From IMG/VR virus record IMGVR_UViG_3300027792_000010: a DNA stretch of 64,000 nucleotides; one strand, written 5' to 3'. The notes under the pieces were generated by a model. That model did no database searches. It was not told where the DNA came from and saw only the letters and a program-made list of their open reading frames with translations. The position numbers and the translations under genes were made by a program. Positions 7,151 through 39,137 of this stretch are shown here, one piece after another. Each line of letters begins with the position of its first letter. Positions within the stretch are counted from its first letter, which is position 1. This DNA comes from a virus.

Positions 7151-8086
7151 ATGAATTATTTTCTTATTGATGGTCACAATTTAGCGTATAGAGCACATAA
7201 TGCTAACTTTGAACTTAGAAAAGCTAATGGTGATCCGTCTGGGATGTTTTATGGATTCATACGTACCCTTATATCCTTAAAGAAGAAATATAGAGGGTAT
7301 AAATTCATAGTCACATGGGATAACAGGTCAAACAGGAAGTTCGAGATCCAACCCGATTATAAAGCTGGGAGAGCATCTTTACCACCAATCGTGTATAAAG
7401 AAATGGACGATTTGAAAGAGTTTTTGAAATACTGCGGGGTAGAGCAATACGAAAAGAAAGGGGAAGAAGCTGACGATATACTCTCAACGCTCGCTGAGAC
7501 GTTCAAAACTAAGGGAGAGACACATATCATAATATACTCTAACGATAAGGATATGCTACAGGTAGTTGAAGACGGTGTTATTACTGTATTTAAACCAAAA
7601 GTAGGTCAAACACCAGAAAAGTTTTTTGACGAAGAAGCTGTGAAAGAAGAATTTGGTGTTCTACCTAAAAGATTAGCTGAGTTTAGATCCTATGATGGGG
7701 ATACCAGTGATAATATACCTGGGATACCTAGAGTTAGAAGAAAAATTATAGCTAATCTATTGAATAAAGTAGATTCTATACAGTTTTTGGCTAAACAGGC
7801 TTCTGAGAGTTCTGAACTATCAGATAAAGAGAGGGAGGCTATACAGGCGTTCCATCCGATAGCTATGCGAAACTATAGCATCGTTAAGTTAAAAACAGAT
7901 ATATCTGACATACAGGTATCTGAAGCATCTTATTCTAAGGAAAAGTTAGAGACATTCTTCCAAGATTACGAAATAAAGTCTATGAAGCCAGATGAAATAA
8001 TCGAACTTTTTCAGTCAAGTCTAAATATTCGGTACACCGAAGCGAGGTCTTCATATAAACTTGAGACATACTCTCTCTTCGACTAA
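7151..8086 (+). CDS. 5'-3' exonuclease / flap endonuclease (PolI N-terminal / T5-type)
   Basis: LIDGHNLAYR, YKAGR, EADDILSTL, SNDKDMLQ, GDTSDNIPGIP motifs. Confidence 0.92.
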   Translation: MNYFLIDGHNLAYRAHNANFELRKANGDPSGMFYGFIRTLISLKKKYRGYKFIVTWDNRSNRKFEIQPDYKAGRASLPPIVYKEMDDLKEFLKYCGVEQYEKKGEEADDILSTLAETFKTKGETHIIIYSNDKDMLQVVEDGVITVFKPKVGQTPEKFFDEEAVKEEFGVLPKRLAEFRSYDGDTSDNIPGIPRVRRKIIANLLNKVDSIQFLAKQASESSELSDKEREAIQAFHPIAMRNYSIVKLKTDISDIQVSEASYSKEKLETFFQDYEIKSMKPDEIIELFQSSLNIRYTEARSSYKLETYSLFD

Positions 8087-8108
8087 CAGCGGTGCAGGAG
8101 GTTTTTAG

Positions 8109-8788: not shown

Positions 8789-8854
8789 AGTCCTCCATTA
8801 GAATTTGAATAAGCCCAGTAAAATTTGGAGCTTAAAGATTCTGATGGAGGATTT
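8788..8854 (+). promoter_or_regulatory. RBS-sequestering hairpin
   Basis: 8788-8806 pairs with 8836-8854 over 19 uninterrupted bp (3 G-U) and covers the GGAGG at 8846-8850. Confidence 0.7.
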
Positions 8855-8858
8855 TTTT

Positions 8859-9299
8859 ATGCCTATAAGTTGTATTCAGCTAAGACTTAGGAAGATAGCA
8901 AATAAGCTATTAAAGGCTGAGTATGACTATGTTAATATCCCTATATATCAGCAGTTTATAGACCAATCCGATGTGGAAAACAAGGATACCACACGCGGAG
9001 GTCCTCCTTCTATGACCGATGAGCCTATACAGGAGAACGAAGAAGGAAGGATCAAGAGGAAGCAGGATATTAGAAGACAAGGACCTCGCCCAGGGGTAAG
9101 GGACCCTTTATTACTAAATCGAGAAGATATGGGAGACTTAAATAATCCCGATTCTGTATCTCCATTGGAGAATTTGCAGGGAGAGAAAACAAGGCAACCT
9201 GATAGAAGTCCTTTCAAAAATTATTATGAAGAAGATTTGCAGAAGGACACAATAGGTTTTAACCCAGATGAGGACCATGTTACAAAGGATAACTTATGA
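8859..9299 (+). CDS. hypothetical probable virion protein (start at ATG 8859 after GGAGG)
   Basis: MPISCIQLRLRKIANKLLKAE..., in frame with track ORF 8805..9299. Acidic and Pro-rich. Confidence 0.7.
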   Translation: MPISCIQLRLRKIANKLLKAEYDYVNIPIYQQFIDQSDVENKDTTRGGPPSMTDEPIQENEEGRIKRKQDIRRQGPRPGVRDPLLLNREDMGDLNNPDSVSPLENLQGEKTRQPDRSPFKNYYEEDLQKDTIGFNPDEDHVTKDNL

Positions 9300-24539: not shown

Positions 24540-24923
24540 ATGCGATCAATAATCTCTAAATATCTAAGACGTATAGTAGCTGGTATTGAAGTTACTGAAG
24601 AACAGGATGGGTTCAAGGATAATCCAGTACTCAAAGATGTTAAGCCACGACAACCAGAAGATATAATAGAACCTCAGGATATGAAATCTAATAAAAAGAC
24701 TAAACAAGTCTTACCTGAGGATAGAAAAGTAGAAAAAGAAAAAGTAGTAACGAAGACACCAGATATAAAGCCTTCCAGAAAAGAGCATACTACTGGAGAA
24801 TGGGAGTACTCAGAGAAGATGAGACAGTATCAGGAAGATAATAGGGCTAACGGTAATGGCACATATCTTAAGAAAAAAATAAATCCTGAAACTGATAAGA
24901 GATTTAAGAATAAAGGAGAATAG
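24540..24923 (+). CDS. hypothetical probable internal virion protein
   Basis: MRSIISKYLRRIVAG leader followed by charged low-complexity sequence. Confidence 0.7.
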   Translation: MRSIISKYLRRIVAGIEVTEEQDGFKDNPVLKDVKPRQPEDIIEPQDMKSNKKTKQVLPEDRKVEKEKVVTKTPDIKPSRKEHTTGEWEYSEKMRQYQEDNRANGNGTYLKKKINPETDKRFKNKGE

Positions 24924-34419: not shown

Positions 34420-34710
34420 ATGCCTACAGAAAAGAAGCCTCTATCAAAAACGGCACGTATCCAGTTGGTACGTGAGGCAAAGAAATTGGTTGGTACCATG
34501 AATAAGACAAATATGGCGGAAGCCATTCGTGCGCTTAAAGCTGATGTTACTAGGGTAGACGCTCGCTCCATCGTGGATGAGGCTGTTACTGCGGTTAAGG
34601 CAAAGACTGTTGCTAAACCAAAGACTGTTGTGGAACCAAAGACTACTGCTAAACCAAAGACCGTTGCTAAACCAAAGACCGTTGCTAAACCAAAGACCGC
34701 TAAGAAATAA
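34420..34710 (+). CDS. histone H1-like basic protein with AKPKTV repeats
   Basis: Lys/Ala-rich tail of five hexapeptide repeats. GGAG RBS. Confidence 0.75.
   Translation: MPTEKKPLSKTARIQLVREAKKLVGTMNKTNMAEAIRALKADVTRVDARSIVDEAVTAVKAKTVAKPKTVVEPKTTAKPKTVAKPKTVAKPKTAKK
34612..34701. repeat. 5 x 18-bp tandem repeat
   Basis: gctaaaccaaagac(c/t)gtt units encoding AKPKTV. Confidence 0.9.
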
Positions 34711-34781
34711 TCAGTTCCATAATCTTTTGATAAAGGATGGTATGTATACTCTTACCATCCTTTATTATTTTAGGGGGAAAT

Positions 34782-34985
34782 ATGGCAGCTGTAAAATATG
34801 AGTGTGCTACTTGTAAGAGCGACCCTATTAAGAAAGAAGATAACTTTGTTTCAATAGGCAAAGATTCAAAAGGCGCAAATATACAAGGTATAAGAAATAT
34901 AGTAGATTGTAATAATGTAAGATTCTATAATAATCAAGTTATGTGTAGAACATGTAATGCTATTGTCTATGAGGATATCAAATAA
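34782..34985 (+). CDS. small zinc-binding protein (CxxC x2)
   Basis: ATG 34782 after GGGGG RBS. CATC...CRTC. Confidence 0.7.
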   Translation: MAAVKYECATCKSDPIKKEDNFVSIGKDSKGANIQGIRNIVDCNNVRFYNNQVMCRTCNAIVYEDIK

Positions 34986-34997
34986 TCTTTTAATATA
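34982..34997 (+). promoter_or_regulatory. class B (probable late) promoter motif
   Basis: ataatcttttaatata, overlapping the TAA of the upstream gene. Confidence 0.55.
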
Positions 34998-35035
34998 AAC
35001 ACATAATAATTAAGGATATTTTCATAAGGTGAACT

Positions 35036-36067
35036 ATGTCCAAACTTATTAGCTGTTATATTAGAAAATTAGCAAATGAACTCCAAGGTAAAACCTGGTC
35101 TGATAGGATCAAGGAAGAGTTTGACATTCATATAGACTCAGATACGAAAGTAGAGTATCTGATTAATCTGTATAATGACCTAAGCAAAATCCCCGCTAAG
35201 ATTATAAAAGACTGTAAGATAAAGATTCTAAAGTTTGAAGATTTAGGACCGTCAAAAGAGTATTACCCTAATCATGGGGTGTATACTAGTGATGGTACCC
35301 TAATACTGAACTATAGAATGTTTGATGATCCTGAGTTATTTGAGGACGGTTCTGGTAAGTCTATGAGTAGATTTACCCATACGCTATACCACGAGTTAGG
35401 TCACGGGTTTGATATGTTAGAGGGAGAAGAGTTCTCTCTTAAACCTAAATGGATTGAATTATCTGGGTGGTCAGAAGACCCTAAACCAGGACTTAAAAGA
35501 ATTATTATTAGAGAGCAGGGATGCCCTGAAATAAGGGGGGAGTGGTTTTACGATCCTAATTCAGTGTTCTCACGTTTTTATGGTAAAAGGAATCCTTGGG
35601 ATGACTACGCGGATACGTTTAGTTTTTACGTAGGCGGGTTGAAAGGTATAATATCAGATAGCAAAATTAAGTATTTTGATGATGTACTAAAAAAGTATTA
35701 TACCCAAAAGTTAGCTATTGTTATACCTCCCCCAAAAGATGAAGAAACAAGAAAAGCCTTAGAGAGATATATGTCTGATAAGACCATAGATGAGTATAGA
35801 AAATATCTTCATACTTATTTAGATAAAGATGAGGAGTTACTTTCCTCGAAAGGATATGATATAGTAGATCTTACAAGAAATAAATTGATGAAGCAAGAAG
35901 AAAAAGTAAAGATGATGAGAGATGAGTTGAGTAAAGCATTAAGTCAGCACCCAACAAGAATGATTAAAAAAGCCTCAGAAGAGATATTAAAGGTATGTCA
36001 TAATTTATTAGGTATAGGTAAAGTCCGAGAATCTGAATATCTAATGTATCTAATAAATGAAAGATAA
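35036..36067 (+). CDS. zincin-like metallopeptidase (HExxH), anthrax-lethal-factor-like
   Basis: TLYHELGHGFD followed by YG..NPWDDYADTF. N-terminal leader MSKLISCYIRKLANE. Confidence 0.7.
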   Translation: MSKLISCYIRKLANELQGKTWSDRIKEEFDIHIDSDTKVEYLINLYNDLSKIPAKIIKDCKIKILKFEDLGPSKEYYPNHGVYTSDGTLILNYRMFDDPELFEDGSGKSMSRFTHTLYHELGHGFDMLEGEEFSLKPKWIELSGWSEDPKPGLKRIIIREQGCPEIRGEWFYDPNSVFSRFYGKRNPWDDYADTFSFYVGGLKGIISDSKIKYFDDVLKKYYTQKLAIVIPPPKDEETRKALERYMSDKTIDEYRKYLHTYLDKDEELLSSKGYDIVDLTRNKLMKQEEKVKMMRDELSKALSQHPTRMIKKASEEILKVCHNLLGIGKVRESEYLMYLINER

Positions 36068-36086
36068 AGACTAACAGGAGGGTAGT

Positions 36087-36398
36087 ATGTGGGGCATGTT
36101 TAAGGGACCGGATGGGAAAATTAGTATGATGCGTGCATCCACTTTCATAGTCGTTATATCTATTATGGGAGTTTTTGTAGCCCATAATATTGTGGCTATG
36201 GTAGCGGGTGCCGCCTTTGTCTCAATAGGTTTCTCAGAAGCAGGTTTAATTGCTGCTGCTATAGGAGTAAAAGCTTATCAGTCTTCAATAGAAAATAAAG
36301 ATGGTAAAGCAGCCGCAGATTTAAGTGCAGGCTCAGATATATCAGAGACAGCTTTAATGGTACCTGAGGAAGATGTATCTAAAGTGAATAAGAGGTAA
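36087..36398 (+). CDS. small membrane protein (2 TM), possibly holin-like
   Basis: DGKISMMR followed by two hydrophobic stretches and a charged C-terminal tail. Confidence 0.5.
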   Translation: MWGMFKGPDGKISMMRASTFIVVISIMGVFVAHNIVAMVAGAAFVSIGFSEAGLIAAAIGVKAYQSSIENKDGKAAADLSAGSDISETALMVPEEDVSKVNKR

Positions 36399-36402
36399 AA
36401 TT

Positions 36403-37371
36403 ATGCCCAATCCTAAGGATTATGACAATAAAAATAAATTCATGCATGATAGTATAAAGACTAATATAGCTGAAGGAAAGAAAAGAAATCAGGCTATAGC
36501 TATCTCTATTAGTATGTGGAATAGTAGGAATAAGAAGAAAAAGGGTAAAAGAAAAACTGCTTCGGAAATACTCAGGGAACTCTCTATGAGAATAGCTTTC
36601 ACTTTTCTAGGCAGGGAACCAACAGAGGTAGAAAAGAAAAAGTTGGAACAGGTATTTGATAAGTATCCCCAGGAAGAATTGAAACAGTTATCATCCCTTA
36701 TAGATAGGTGGTGGTATAATTCTAGCGACTTAATGACTAAAAATCCTGATAAAATGAAACTTTTTGTTATGTCATTCTACAATGAAGTGCTTAAAGACTT
36801 TTTGATGAAGCACTCAGACGATAAAGAATTACAGGAGATTAAGAAAATTATTACTGATTTAGGAGACCAGAATCAGAGGATACACCCAGCTTTTGTTATT
36901 AGGTTGATTAGGGATGCTATAAAGGAAGAAGCTATGGAAAAAAGGGCCGCAGGTAGTATAGTTTATTATGGATTATTTTTTGTACCCCCAGAGTCTATTA
37001 AACTTTTTAATGCGGCACAAAGTGGACCTTTATTAGTTAAAAAAATTCCTGATCCTCATATAACTTTTGCTTTTAAACCAGCTCCGGGTAAGCTTCCTCC
37101 AGAAGATTTATGGGGGGAAAAGTTTGATGTAGTAATAACTGGTTTGGGTAATGACGGAAATAACCAAGGATATAAAGTAGAGATTCCAGAAGAGTTGAAA
37201 AAATACTATTTTAATGATGCTATACCACACATCACGCTATCTGTTTCAAACATTGGAAAACCTGTAAATACAAGGAACCTTTTATTTAAAGATATTCCTA
37301 ATTTCAAGGTACAGGGTATATTTGGATACCACAACGGAGCAAAAGCAGTATTAGAAGAGAGTCCTAAATGA
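36403..37371 (+). CDS. multidomain protein with C-terminal 2H phosphoesterase
   Basis: Two HxT motifs (DPHITFAF, IPHITLSV) after a KRAAGS linker. N-terminal MPNP...EGKKRNQAIAISISMW module. Confidence 0.75.
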   Translation: MPNPKDYDNKNKFMHDSIKTNIAEGKKRNQAIAISISMWNSRNKKKKGKRKTASEILRELSMRIAFTFLGREPTEVEKKKLEQVFDKYPQEELKQLSSLIDRWWYNSSDLMTKNPDKMKLFVMSFYNEVLKDFLMKHSDDKELQEIKKIITDLGDQNQRIHPAFVIRLIRDAIKEEAMEKRAAGSIVYYGLFFVPPESIKLFNAAQSGPLLVKKIPDPHITFAFKPAPGKLPPEDLWGEKFDVVITGLGNDGNNQGYKVEIPEELKKYYFNDAIPHITLSVSNIGKPVNTRNLLFKDIPNFKVQGIFGYHNGAKAVLEESPK

Positions 37372-37943
37372 AGATATCCATATCACACAAGATAAGATAC
37401 AACGCTATGAGGTTAGCAAAAAAAGGAGCTAACTATTCAAAGTCTAGCTTACAATACGCTCTTCCAGAAGAGACTGCTAAAAGGATACTAAAGTGGTCAA
37501 AGGATAATATACCTGATGAAGAATTGTATACTGAAGAAGAGGATAAGGGAAGAGAAGATGAAATACATATAACGATCTTCTATGGAATATTGGATGAAGA
37601 TTCAGGCTCTACAGTTAAGGTTTTAGAAGATCACAATATAAAGTCTTTCCCTGTTCAACTTTCCACAGTTACTGCCTTCCAGAATAAGCCTGAATATGAT
37701 GTTCTTAAAGTAGATATAGAGTCATCAGAACTCCATAAGATTCATAAGCTTATAGAGAGATACTTGGATACTAAGAATGACTTTCCAGAATATAAACCCC
37801 ATCTTACCTTAGCATATTTGAAAAAAGGATATGCTGATAAGTACATAGGGAAAAAAGATTTTCAGGGTATTAGTGTGATTGCGGAGTCTGTGGAGTTTTC
37901 TTCTAAGAACGGCACAAAAACGAATATCAAATTAAAAAAGTGA
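37368..37943 (+). CDS. 2H phosphoesterase, T4 57B/Acb1-like
   Basis: EIHITIFYG and SSELHKIH...KNDFPEYKPHLTLAY (T4 57B/Acb1 has SEYLRCRH...THDFDDYTPHITLSY). Confidence 0.75.
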   Translation: MKISISHKIRYNAMRLAKKGANYSKSSLQYALPEETAKRILKWSKDNIPDEELYTEEEDKGREDEIHITIFYGILDEDSGSTVKVLEDHNIKSFPVQLSTVTAFQNKPEYDVLKVDIESSELHKIHKLIERYLDTKNDFPEYKPHLTLAYLKKGYADKYIGKKDFQGISVIAESVEFSSKNGTKTNIKLKK

Positions 37944-38012
37944 TAATTTATTAATACTATCTGATTTGTTAGATGCATATCTTTATTACATTCATATTAA
38001 AAGGAGATAGAT

Positions 38013-39137
38013 ATGTCAGAGATGAAATCTTATGTCGCAGTTGTTGACTTCAACATGAGCCTTAACAATGGTAAAGAATCCATAAGGGTTACAAGAGGTC
38101 AGGTTCTATCATTCGATGGATTGTACGTTGATATGGGTGATGGAACAAGAGGCACAGCAAGGCCCCTTTCCAAGATGATTGGTGAGTGGGTAGTTCCTTA
38201 TCAGCAGCAGGTCCCCCAGGCTCCTCGTCCTCAGATAAGGACATCAGTAGCCGGAAGAGACAGTATAGAACAAAGTAATGAGTACCAGGATTTTCCTGTG
38301 ACTAATGCAGGTCGTGACCCCTCTCTTGAGAGAGATCTTCAGACCTACGAAGAGAAAACTTTTGGTAAGACTGGTAAATTGATTCAGGATGATTCGTCTG
38401 TAGTTTCACAAGTTAGACAAGCATCCAATAGTGGAGCCATAAAGAATACGTCAGGTGTTCAGATTGAAGAGCAGAATATGCAGGTAGGTACTGTAATCTC
38501 CCATGAGGAGAGAGTAGTCAAAGAGACCAGTTATAACGGGCCTCAAGTAACTTCTCAGCAGGAGCACCTAAGGGTTGTGAATGATGAGGTTATTGCAAAA
38601 CAGACGGTTTCCAACCCAACTGTAGAAGAACTTTTGAAGCAGATGGCAGCGCTACAGCAGCAGGTTCTTAAGTTAACGAGACAGCCTACTGTTTCACAGG
38701 AAGAGAGAGTTGTTAAAGAAACAGGTTCTATAGCGATTCCTCGTACAGATGTTGGTTCTTCTACTCAGGCCCAAGTAGCTCAGAGTAAGGTAGCAGCATC
38801 CCAGCAGAAAGTGATTATAAAGTCGCCTAATAAGAAAATTACAGAGGACAATGAGGGAGTGATAGTTAAGAAGGTAAAGAATACTAATGTAAAGGTAGAC
38901 GGTGGGAATAGCGGTATTTCTATAAAGACTGCAGTAGTACCTGAAGATACAAATATAGCAGATGCTAATGTTACTTTCGGAGGTAATGCTAAAGATATTT
39001 ACGAAAGTGACACTGAATTTAGCGGAACTGGGGCAGAAGTTGTTGATGTGTCAGTAGCAGGACCTAAACAAGGTGTGCATGTAGCAAGACAACTAGACTC
39101 TGGAATAGATGTGGATGAATTACTAGGAGCTGTATAA
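38013..39137 (+). CDS. hypothetical Gln/Val/Ser-rich protein
   Basis: AAGGAG RBS. Repeated SxEERVVKET motif. Confidence 0.75.
   Translation: MSEMKSYVAVVDFNMSLNNGKESIRVTRGQVLSFDGLYVDMGDGTRGTARPLSKMIGEWVVPYQQQVPQAPRPQIRTSVAGRDSIEQSNEYQDFPVTNAGRDPSLERDLQTYEEKTFGKTGKLIQDDSSVVSQVRQASNSGAIKNTSGVQIEEQNMQVGTVISHEERVVKETSYNGPQVTSQQEHLRVVNDEVIAKQTVSNPTVEELLKQMAALQQQVLKLTRQPTVSQEERVVKETGSIAIPRTDVGSSTQAQVAQSKVAASQQKVIIKSPNKKITEDNEGVIVKKVKNTNVKVDGGNSGISIKTAVVPEDTNIADANVTFGGNAKDIYESDTEFSGTGAEVVDVSVAGPKQGVHVARQLDSGIDVDELLGAV

Follow-up and report, generated by a model that had tools for sequence, protein, structure and literature searches.

Phage 2H phosphodiesterases are a current topic in the field of immune evasion (Acb1; Doherty et al., 2025), with 75 diverse enzymes, 13 of them in multidomain proteins, described by Doherty et al. 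(2025). In T4 infection, the activity of Acb1 appears late, matching the late onset of CBASS, the anti-phage signalling that works through cyclic oligonucleotides (Hobbs et al., PMC9117128). A second body of work concerns the polyvalent proteins of phages, which have been proposed to be delivered or processed by their own zincins, and whose 2H domains have been suggested to break down the nucleotide signals used in host defence (Iyer, Burroughs, Anand, de Souza and Aravind, 2017, PMC5512222). Here, we describe a locus in the IMG/VR virus record IMGVR_UViG_3300027792_000010, of which a stretch of 64,000 nucleotides (hereafter the window) was analysed. Four co-oriented open reading frames (ORFs; 35036-37943), enclosed between two copies of a promoter-like motif, are predicted to encode a zincin, a small membrane protein, a mosaic protein ending in a CNPase-like 2H domain and an Acb1-type 2H enzyme. 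With modest confidence, this cassette is read as a late-transcribed counter-defence module that resembles a polyvalent protein split into several genes.

The concept of zincin/2H counter-defence proteins is already in print (Iyer et al., 2017), and the cassette compares with it as follows. Zincin, 2H and other enzyme domains lie among virion genes in both cases, and the early or late counter-defence role and the processing by a zincin, as proposed for polyvalent proteins, may extend to the cassette. By its Pfam domain content, gp321 of a cultured relative, Tunturiibacter phage Tunturi_5 (1,362 amino acids, aa), is a textbook polyvalent protein, which joins a related 2H domain (30% identity) to SprT-like zincin, ART-PolyVal, GNAT and DUF3990 domains. 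This protein is annotated as 'MutT/NUDIX hydrolase' and its gene (L036:3492-7580; PP885688 261501-265589) lies between head-tail connector and minor tail genes. In contrast, the cassette consists of separate, translationally coupled genes with swappable modules instead of one giant chain, its zincin belongs to another family than the SprT-like domain of gp321, and MuF, portal and ART domains are absent. In the mechanism envisaged, the Acb1-type enzyme would cut CBASS-type cyclic oligonucleotide alarm signals when capsid assembly triggers them, while the CNPase-like domain, probably a recently gained and dispensable add-on, would open 2',3'-cyclic phosphate ends or serve against a second class of signal. 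The zincin would be a site-specific endopeptidase, which either processes its modular partners at conserved basic-x-Ala junctions or cuts a host protein.

The last gene of the cassette (37368..37943, + strand; 191 aa, phrog_755) encodes a predicted Acb1-family 2H phosphodiesterase, which scores 37.8 bits against the Pfam model Acb1 (PF23474; cut-off 27) and keeps both HxT motifs (HIT at residues 67-69 and HLT at 145-147). The first-pass annotation of this DNA, made from the letters alone, had claimed that one of the two 2H enzymes follows the Acb1 motif layout and that the two enzymes differ; both claims hold, the other enzyme coming from a separate, CNPase-like branch. H67, T69, H145 and T147 are invariant in the 11 sequences of the clade, and the language-model neighbours of the protein are viral 2H/Acb1 clusters. 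A profile of the clade searched against the PDB retrieved the Acb1 enzymes 9q2g (Burkholderia phage BCSR5; E 3e-6) and 7t26 (phage FBB1; E 2e-3), with a plant cyclic phosphodiesterase ranking behind them; both HxT motifs align to those of 9q2g, and the second also to that of 7t26. Relative to the described Acb1 enzymes (T4 gp57B; FBB1, 7T26/7T27; BCSR5 PDE-9, 9Q2G/9Q2Y), the likeness therefore lies in the Pfam threshold passed, the HxT motifs in register and the best solved matches, to which a late position among viral genes can be added, the activity of T4 Acb1 being likewise late. The differences are a distant sequence relationship (pairwise E 0.008-0.25), the location of the gene in the head block and the architecture in relatives, where the domain ends a longer chain with Nuc_deoxyri_tr2. 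In 11 related large phages the Acb1-type domain is a fixed core gene, C-terminal in a chain of 305-489 aa at the same place, the last ~175 residues of which are homologous to the 191-aa ORF of the window (35-47% identity). The Nuc_deoxyri_tr2 domain (PF15891) was found upstream of the Acb1-like domain in the same chain at L001:8053-9522 and L010:8032-9267, and its 'VFLGG...' motif also occurs in the homologues of L002, L004-L006, L011, L012, L014 and L019, while the cassette genes of the window lack this domain.

The other 2H domain forms the C-terminal part (residues 184-322; 36952..37371, + strand) of the 322-aa protein encoded by the preceding gene, with HITF at residues 219-222 and HITL at 276-279, and is termed here mini-2H. 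A search of 1.84 billion cluster representatives returned 461 of them at E<=1e-3, which puts the family at 461 clusters at least; nearly all of these matches cover residues ~184-320 only, and most are stand-alone proteins of 120-145 aa. In an alignment of 62 sequences, H36, T38 and T95 are invariant and H93 nearly so, giving two H-x-T/S-x motifs. There is no Pfam model for the family, its sequence profile gave nothing significant against the PDB, and three members searched by tblastn against 50,697 GenBank phage records found no match. The structural model of the domain is of high confidence (predicted local distance difference test, pLDDT, 95-99 over most of the domain), and its best fold match is the catalytic domain of mouse CNPase (2xmi_A; Z 13.2, root mean square deviation 2.2 Å, 127 residues aligned, model residues 184-312). 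Other 2H enzymes follow at Z 5-7.7, every non-2H match scores below CNPase, and the remaining matches covering the domain are other 2H enzymes, except for two uncharacterised chains. A Foldseek comparison, which had been put forward as a check, was run on this second 2H domain and confirmed the 2H fold, with CNPase at E 2e-5 and with the fungal tRNA-ligase kinase-cyclic phosphodiesterase (CPD) and rotavirus VP3 also listed. Mini-2H thus resembles CNPase and the CPD of fungal and plant tRNA ligases in its superposition and in both HxT motifs, but differs in its size (~130 against ~215 residues), in the lack of a kinase partner in the window and in belonging to a viral family known from metagenomes only.

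The partners to which mini-2H is fused elsewhere are varied. It is joined to Tad8, the inhibitor of type II Thoeris (P0125), to the domain LPD28 of polyvalent proteins (P0141/P0285) and to an AAA_33 P-loop kinase (P0260), the last being the layout of CNPase and Trl1; a P-loop kinase-like domain upstream of mini-2H is absent from the 322-aa protein and, among the fusion proteins scanned, was found in P0260 only. In P0126, a single chain comprises the N-terminal module described below, a segment with a Nuc_deoxyri_tr2-like sequence motif, an Acb1-like domain and mini-2H, the order of the two 2H domains being opposite to that of the window. A degenerate DNA pattern for mini-2H matched two loci only. 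In a 66-kb phage (L034:4767-5273 and 7497-8108, both on the - strand), a stand-alone mini-2H was observed among small accessory genes, ~2 kb from a SprT-like HELLH protein.

The 322-aa ORF (36403..37371, + strand) is itself a mosaic. Its first part (36403..36612; phrog_2423) consists of the N-module (residues 1 to ~48; pLDDT 90-97 at residues 1-40), followed by a Lys-rich stretch, KTAS and an amphipathic helix. The N-module has no match in Pfam and resembles in structure segments of XkdF-type proteases and of DUF5824 and DUF6321 proteins. In relatives, it occurs as a stand-alone gene of 65-90 aa, fused to Cupin_2 (L007:7463-8116, with the sequence pattern MPDPK...C...W), fused directly to mini-2H (P0128), or fused to Nuc_deoxyri_tr2 and a 2H domain (L001, with the same sequence motif in L002). 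A helical middle (residues 71-183; 36613..36951; pLDDT 53-78) is specific to the lineage and common to P0122-P0124 only. Two close homologues (P0123 and P0124; 180 aa) end at ...IRDAIKEESQK, where the window reads on into AMEKRAA-GS. In the soil DNA run X2, one contig joins position 36930 to 37366 via AGCCAG while another spans the full segment unchanged, and by codon arithmetic the short allele reads ...KEE-SQ-K-stop, as in P0123 and P0124. The linker AMEKRAA together with mini-2H (36931..37365, + strand; 435 nucleotides) is an in-frame segment that is present or absent between co-occurring strains. Because of this strain polymorphism and of the short homologues, the domain appears to be dispensable. 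It had been claimed that the 2H domain is released exactly after KRAA/GS. As a domain border this is exact, both the stand-alone homologues and the fold match starting at residue 184, right after KRAA; as a cut site it is not upheld, since a domain inserted with its own linker would explain the border and no cleavage is needed.

The first gene (35036..36067, + strand) encodes a protein of 343 aa, of which residues 1-225 (35036..35710) form a predicted zincin domain with HELGH at residues 119-123. Across 29 sequences, H80, H119, E120, H123, D126, Y182, D190 and D193 do not vary, and more than 160 homologues at ~50% identity were found, most being free-standing proteins (205-240 aa) encoded on large phage contigs. 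Nothing significant was obtained against Pfam, PHROG, NCBIfam and PDB sequences; tblastn against GenBank phages found no match; the zincin had no match to Pfam ATLF at E<=0.1, its best hit to a zincin model being Peptidase_M91 at E 0.037, short of the cut-off; and a sequence profile against the PDB found neither an LF nor a PPEP chain, nor anything else significant. The AlphaFold model, confident over most of residues 1-222 (pLDDT >90 across the greater part of 11-220, with lower values in the ranges 71-80 and 161-190), was compared exhaustively with known structures, and the catalytic domain of anthrax lethal factor (LF) ranked first (1yqy_A; Z 11.2, 182 residues aligned), followed by 4l7a, an uncharacterised zinc peptidase of Bacteroides (Z 9.2), PPEP-3 (8.8) and PPEP-2 (8.6); Foldseek likewise ranked LF and PPEP-1 at the top. 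The epithet 'lethal-factor-like', which had been given to this gene, is borne out for the fold but not for the family, as there is neither a sequence match nor an invariant Glu after HExxH; downstream of that motif, Y182, D190 and D193 are invariant, D189 is nearly so, and the spacing from Tyr to the acidic residues is 7-8 residues. Compared with the peptidases of MEROPS family M34 (anthrax LF and PPEP-1/2/3), HExxH lies on the equivalent helix and the best fold matches reach Z 8.6-11.2, whereas the invariant acidic residues of the cassette zincin are Asp126, Asp190 and Asp193, and the protein is viral with a domain of ~225 residues. One metallopeptidase clade of phage polyvalent proteins has been characterised by an Asp placed three residues past HExxH and by a His that is conserved on the core sheet (Iyer et al., PMC5512222); HELGHGFD with D126, together with the invariant H80, agrees with the wording of that description, to which the comparison is confined. 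The zincin of N4 vRNAP was considered as a relative and rejected, its alignment to the cassette zincin family covering the HExxH motif only. The helical C-terminal tail (residues 226-343; 35711..36067), modelled at low confidence (pLDDT 40-68), is shared only by the three closest homologues; relatives carry a separate helical protein after the zincin, and its homology to the tail was not significant.

Conservation of gene order extends these observations to other large phages. A scan of IMG/VR with a single zincin sequence gave no match, but an alignment scan with the zincin family brought up 30 loci that contain a homologue of it. In 11 of these (L001, L002, L004-L007, L010-L012, L014 and L019; contigs of 46-467 kb), the gene order is wholly or largely kept: the capsid gene, often homing-endonuclease genes, a zincin of ~230 aa, a fast-evolving helical protein, a small membrane protein, a protein of 65-90 aa (corresponding to residues 1-64 of the 322-aa ORF), the 305-489-aa protein, and homologues of the window genes at 38013 and 39139. 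The unit thus has a fixed place across the clade, between the capsid gene and the next conserved genes of the virion region. Phage G and Tunturi_5 share the head genes, but a zincin is absent at this place in both, and the proteins adjoining their capsid genes (phage G gp28 and Tunturi_5 gp335) were rejected as counterparts, neither being a zincin. Because these two phages carry the shared head genes with no zincin beside them, the block is taken to be specific to the present clade, where it occupies an insertion-prone site in the virion gene region. The small membrane protein (36087..36398, + strand; 103 aa) is kept at the same place in relatives (37-61% identity). By hydropathy, residues ~17-62 make up a single hydrophobic segment whose length would suffice for two membrane helices, and the C-terminus is acidic; the protein has no match in Pfam, PHROG or NCBIfam.

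That the four genes are expressed together is suggested by their setting. All four ORFs that had been noted (an HExxH peptidase, a membrane protein and two different 2H enzymes) are present as described, and the start of the 191-aa gene overlaps the stop of the 322-aa gene (ATGA). The promoter-like motif ATAATCTWTTAATA, allowing at most one mismatch, has 10 matches in the window, where chance would give 0.48; nine of the copies are on the + strand and occupy intergenic gaps, among them those upstream of head genes (25213, 28670), of tail or fibre genes (47122, 47636, 49351) and of the gene at 8805. One copy, ATAATCTTTTAATA (34982..34995, + strand), stands just before the zincin gene, 41 nucleotides upstream of its start codon, and the next (37943..37956, + strand; one mismatch) stands just after the 191-aa gene and opens the following unit (38013...). 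In the closest IMG/VR relative (L010), the motif occupies the same position before the zincin, so that the 'class B motif' of the earlier annotation is real. Within the cassette, the scan for + strand terminators found none and sigma-70-like sites were not in excess, both scans being at chance level. Because the motif is shared with head and tail genes and there is no internal terminator, the cassette has the look of a single, late-class transcription unit, which renders the earlier suggestion of late co-expression plausible.

A role in counter-defence, as had been supposed from the sequence, is plausible from the fusions of relatives (Tad8, Nuc_deoxyri_tr2 and the Tunturi_5 polyvalent protein). 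Several points weigh against it. For the 191-aa protein, the model 2_5_RNA_ligase2 scores nearly as well as Acb1 (35.0 bits; cut-off 27 bits), and the bacterial cyclic phosphodiesterase TIGR02258 reaches 42 bits, below its cut-off of 65.7. The zincin family occurs stand-alone or with helical tails only (longer forms of 310-688 aa carry no Pfam domain) and was not found inside classical polyvalent proteins. Contigs of two wetland RNA libraries match the zincin gene (35762-35931), the membrane protein gene (36129-36279) and several head genes at 100% identity, but such contigs cannot prove transcription and offer a weak hint only; the gap in the cover of these runs at 31.2-35.2 kb is a hole in the data and not a finding. 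Furthermore, the CNPase-like and Trl1-CPD-like folds and the kinase fusion of P0260 point equally to the healing of RNA ends, which is a serious alternative for the chemistry. On that account, both 2H enzymes would heal the 2',3'-cyclic phosphate ends of tRNA or mRNA cut by host anticodon nucleases or toxins, and would thereby protect late translation. The closeness of mini-2H to CNPase, the listing of the fungal tRNA-ligase kinase-CPD and the TIGR02258 score all speak for it, yet in Pfam and PHROG scans and in the loci of relatives neither an RNA ligase nor a kinase was found within the cassette or next to it, and the 2H domains of this phage type are not associated with RNA ligases (Iyer et al., PMC5512222). 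The Tad8 and polyvalent-protein fusions also point to immune evasion, and among solved structures it is Acb1 enzymes that stand closest to the 191-aa protein; RNA-end repair is considered unlikely. Two further explanations start from the position and timing of the genes. The zincin, whose gene in every case comes after the capsid gene (with any homing-nuclease genes in between) and whose conservation (~50% identity) equals that of head genes, could serve as a second morphogenetic protease with head or scaffold proteins as its substrates, the membrane and 2H genes being unrelated passengers; this is improbable, given that phage G and Tunturi_5 share the head genes without it and that the zincin, membrane protein, N-module and 2H protein are conserved together as a block. 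Late timing and the holin-like size and layout of the membrane protein, with its charged C-terminus, would also suit a lysis cassette in which the zincin is a cell-wall peptidase and the membrane protein its holin. However, the fold list (LF, PPEP, the uncharacterised 4l7a and 3dl1) contains no known family for which cell-wall hydrolysis is described, and Pfam, PHROGs and NCBIfam show no wall-binding domain and no holin or endolysin family, leaving lysis with very little probability.

The remaining alternative concerns the place of action: the prohead would take up the enzymes, its protease would trim them at basic-x-Ala sites, and they would enter the host together with the DNA, as had been supposed. 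All three enzymes had also been credited with basic-x-Ala leaders like those of the head proteins. As worded, this is not confirmed: the strict motif [KR]xA[SA] lies in the tail of the zincin (residue 311), whereas the 322-aa protein has it at residues 51 and 180 and the 191-aa protein lacks it. Head-core and cassette proteins contain 23 copies of the motif where 5.8 are expected (z 7.1), and in the rest of the window it is not enriched (9 against 5.5); nevertheless, it was defined post hoc on those same proteins, which are rich in Ala/Lys helices. In favour of packaging, every relative has a conserved K-x-A-[KN] at a distance of 8-10 residues ahead of its Acb1-like domain, most of them have KK-x-AS after the N-module, the cassette lies inside the head gene block under a shared late motif, and gene borders in one phage coincide with linkers of a fused chain in another. 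A 15-residue amphipathic 'LRRIA' helix ([IL]-[ST]-x-x-[IL]-R-[RK]-[IL]-A-x-x-L) lies at the N-terminus of the zincin and recurs at the module borders of the partner proteins; its matches are individually marginal (E 0.02-3), and a strict regular expression found it in three window proteins only, with no head protein among them. P1 DdrB and N4 vRNAP provide precedents of polyvalent or packaged proteins (cited in PMC5512222). Set against capsid-targeted internal proteins that a protease matures (T4 IP/Alt type), what the cassette offers is the recurrent helix, with its marginal matches, and the post hoc basic-x-Ala junctions. On the other hand, the K-x-A motifs of the capsid protein fall within a conserved N-terminal arm, and because this segment is conserved to Tunturi_5 and, more weakly, to phage G, it seems to be structural rather than a removable leader; domain insertion explains the exact KRAA/GS border; and early injection gains little for an enzyme that destroys a late-made signal. 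Packaging is thus regarded as doubtful, and action in the cytoplasm late in infection is somewhat more likely than capsid loading. A junction code is possible, and if there is one, the neighbouring zincin and the prohead protease would be equally good candidates for reading it. Cleavage by lethal factor takes place after a basic cluster that precedes hydrophobic residues. LRRIA-like segments were also observed in two further proteins of the window, at 8805-9299 (residues 23-41) and at 24540-24923 (N-terminus MRSIISKYLRRIV, after the portal gene).

Carried further, the junctions would allow for a self-contained cargo system, an idea that is speculative and rather improbable. The LF-fold protease would read a junction code made of a Lys-rich run, K-x-A-S/K and an LRRIA-type helix, and would release swappable enzymes acting on nucleotide signals or RNA ends (Acb1-like, CNPase-like, deoxyribosyltransferase-like and cupin), which would dock via shared helices to each other or to the capsid, while populations would shuffle single domains in tracking host defences. 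The 2H pair would then work in series, the Acb1 type opening cyclic oligonucleotides and the CNPase type clearing the cyclic-phosphate products or other signals. Independently of that idea, and returning to the cassette as a putative late counter-defence module, what is new is the CNPase-like mini-2H family, the stand-alone zincin family of lethal-factor fold and the strain-level polymorphism of a domain. The locus adds to the subject of phage 2H enzymes a large, unnamed viral family of minimal CNPase-like 2H domains, which is absent from records of cultured phages and of which a fusion with a known anti-Thoeris domain occurs; a large-phage clade whose head block includes, as a fixed and late gene, an Acb1-type enzyme joined to varied partner domains; and a natural gain or loss of one domain between co-occurring strains. 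The cassette is, moreover, a compact test bed for the zincin-processing proposal of 2017, with protease, junctions and cargo as separate small genes, each of which can be expressed alone.

As for the genomic setting, the window is part of a ~202-kb contig of an uncultured phage, and its + strand carries every long ORF. Other genes in it specify a clamp loader, a terminase, a portal, a prohead protease, the major capsid protein and collagen-like fibres. For the capsid protein, identity is 74% to the counterpart in an uncultured 485-kb phage, 48% to that of Tunturi_5 and 40% to gp27 of Bacillus phage G; on these identities, the phage is assigned to the wider phage-G-like group of large myoviruses. 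Blastn of the cassette against GenBank phages gave no match. At 34420-34710, after the homing-endonuclease genes and before the cassette, a 96-aa protein is encoded that has repeats of the AKPKTV type and is rich in Lys, Ala, Pro and Thr, and immediately upstream of the cassette (34719-34985) lies the gene of a 67-aa CxxC...CxxC protein (start 34783) with its own copy of the promoter-like motif at 34719 (one mismatch). Lastly, a contig of the soil run X2 leads from 29448 back to 25797 through 11 other letters, both positions being in charged, repetitive parts of head-region genes; this join may be an assembly artefact or a rearranged strain.

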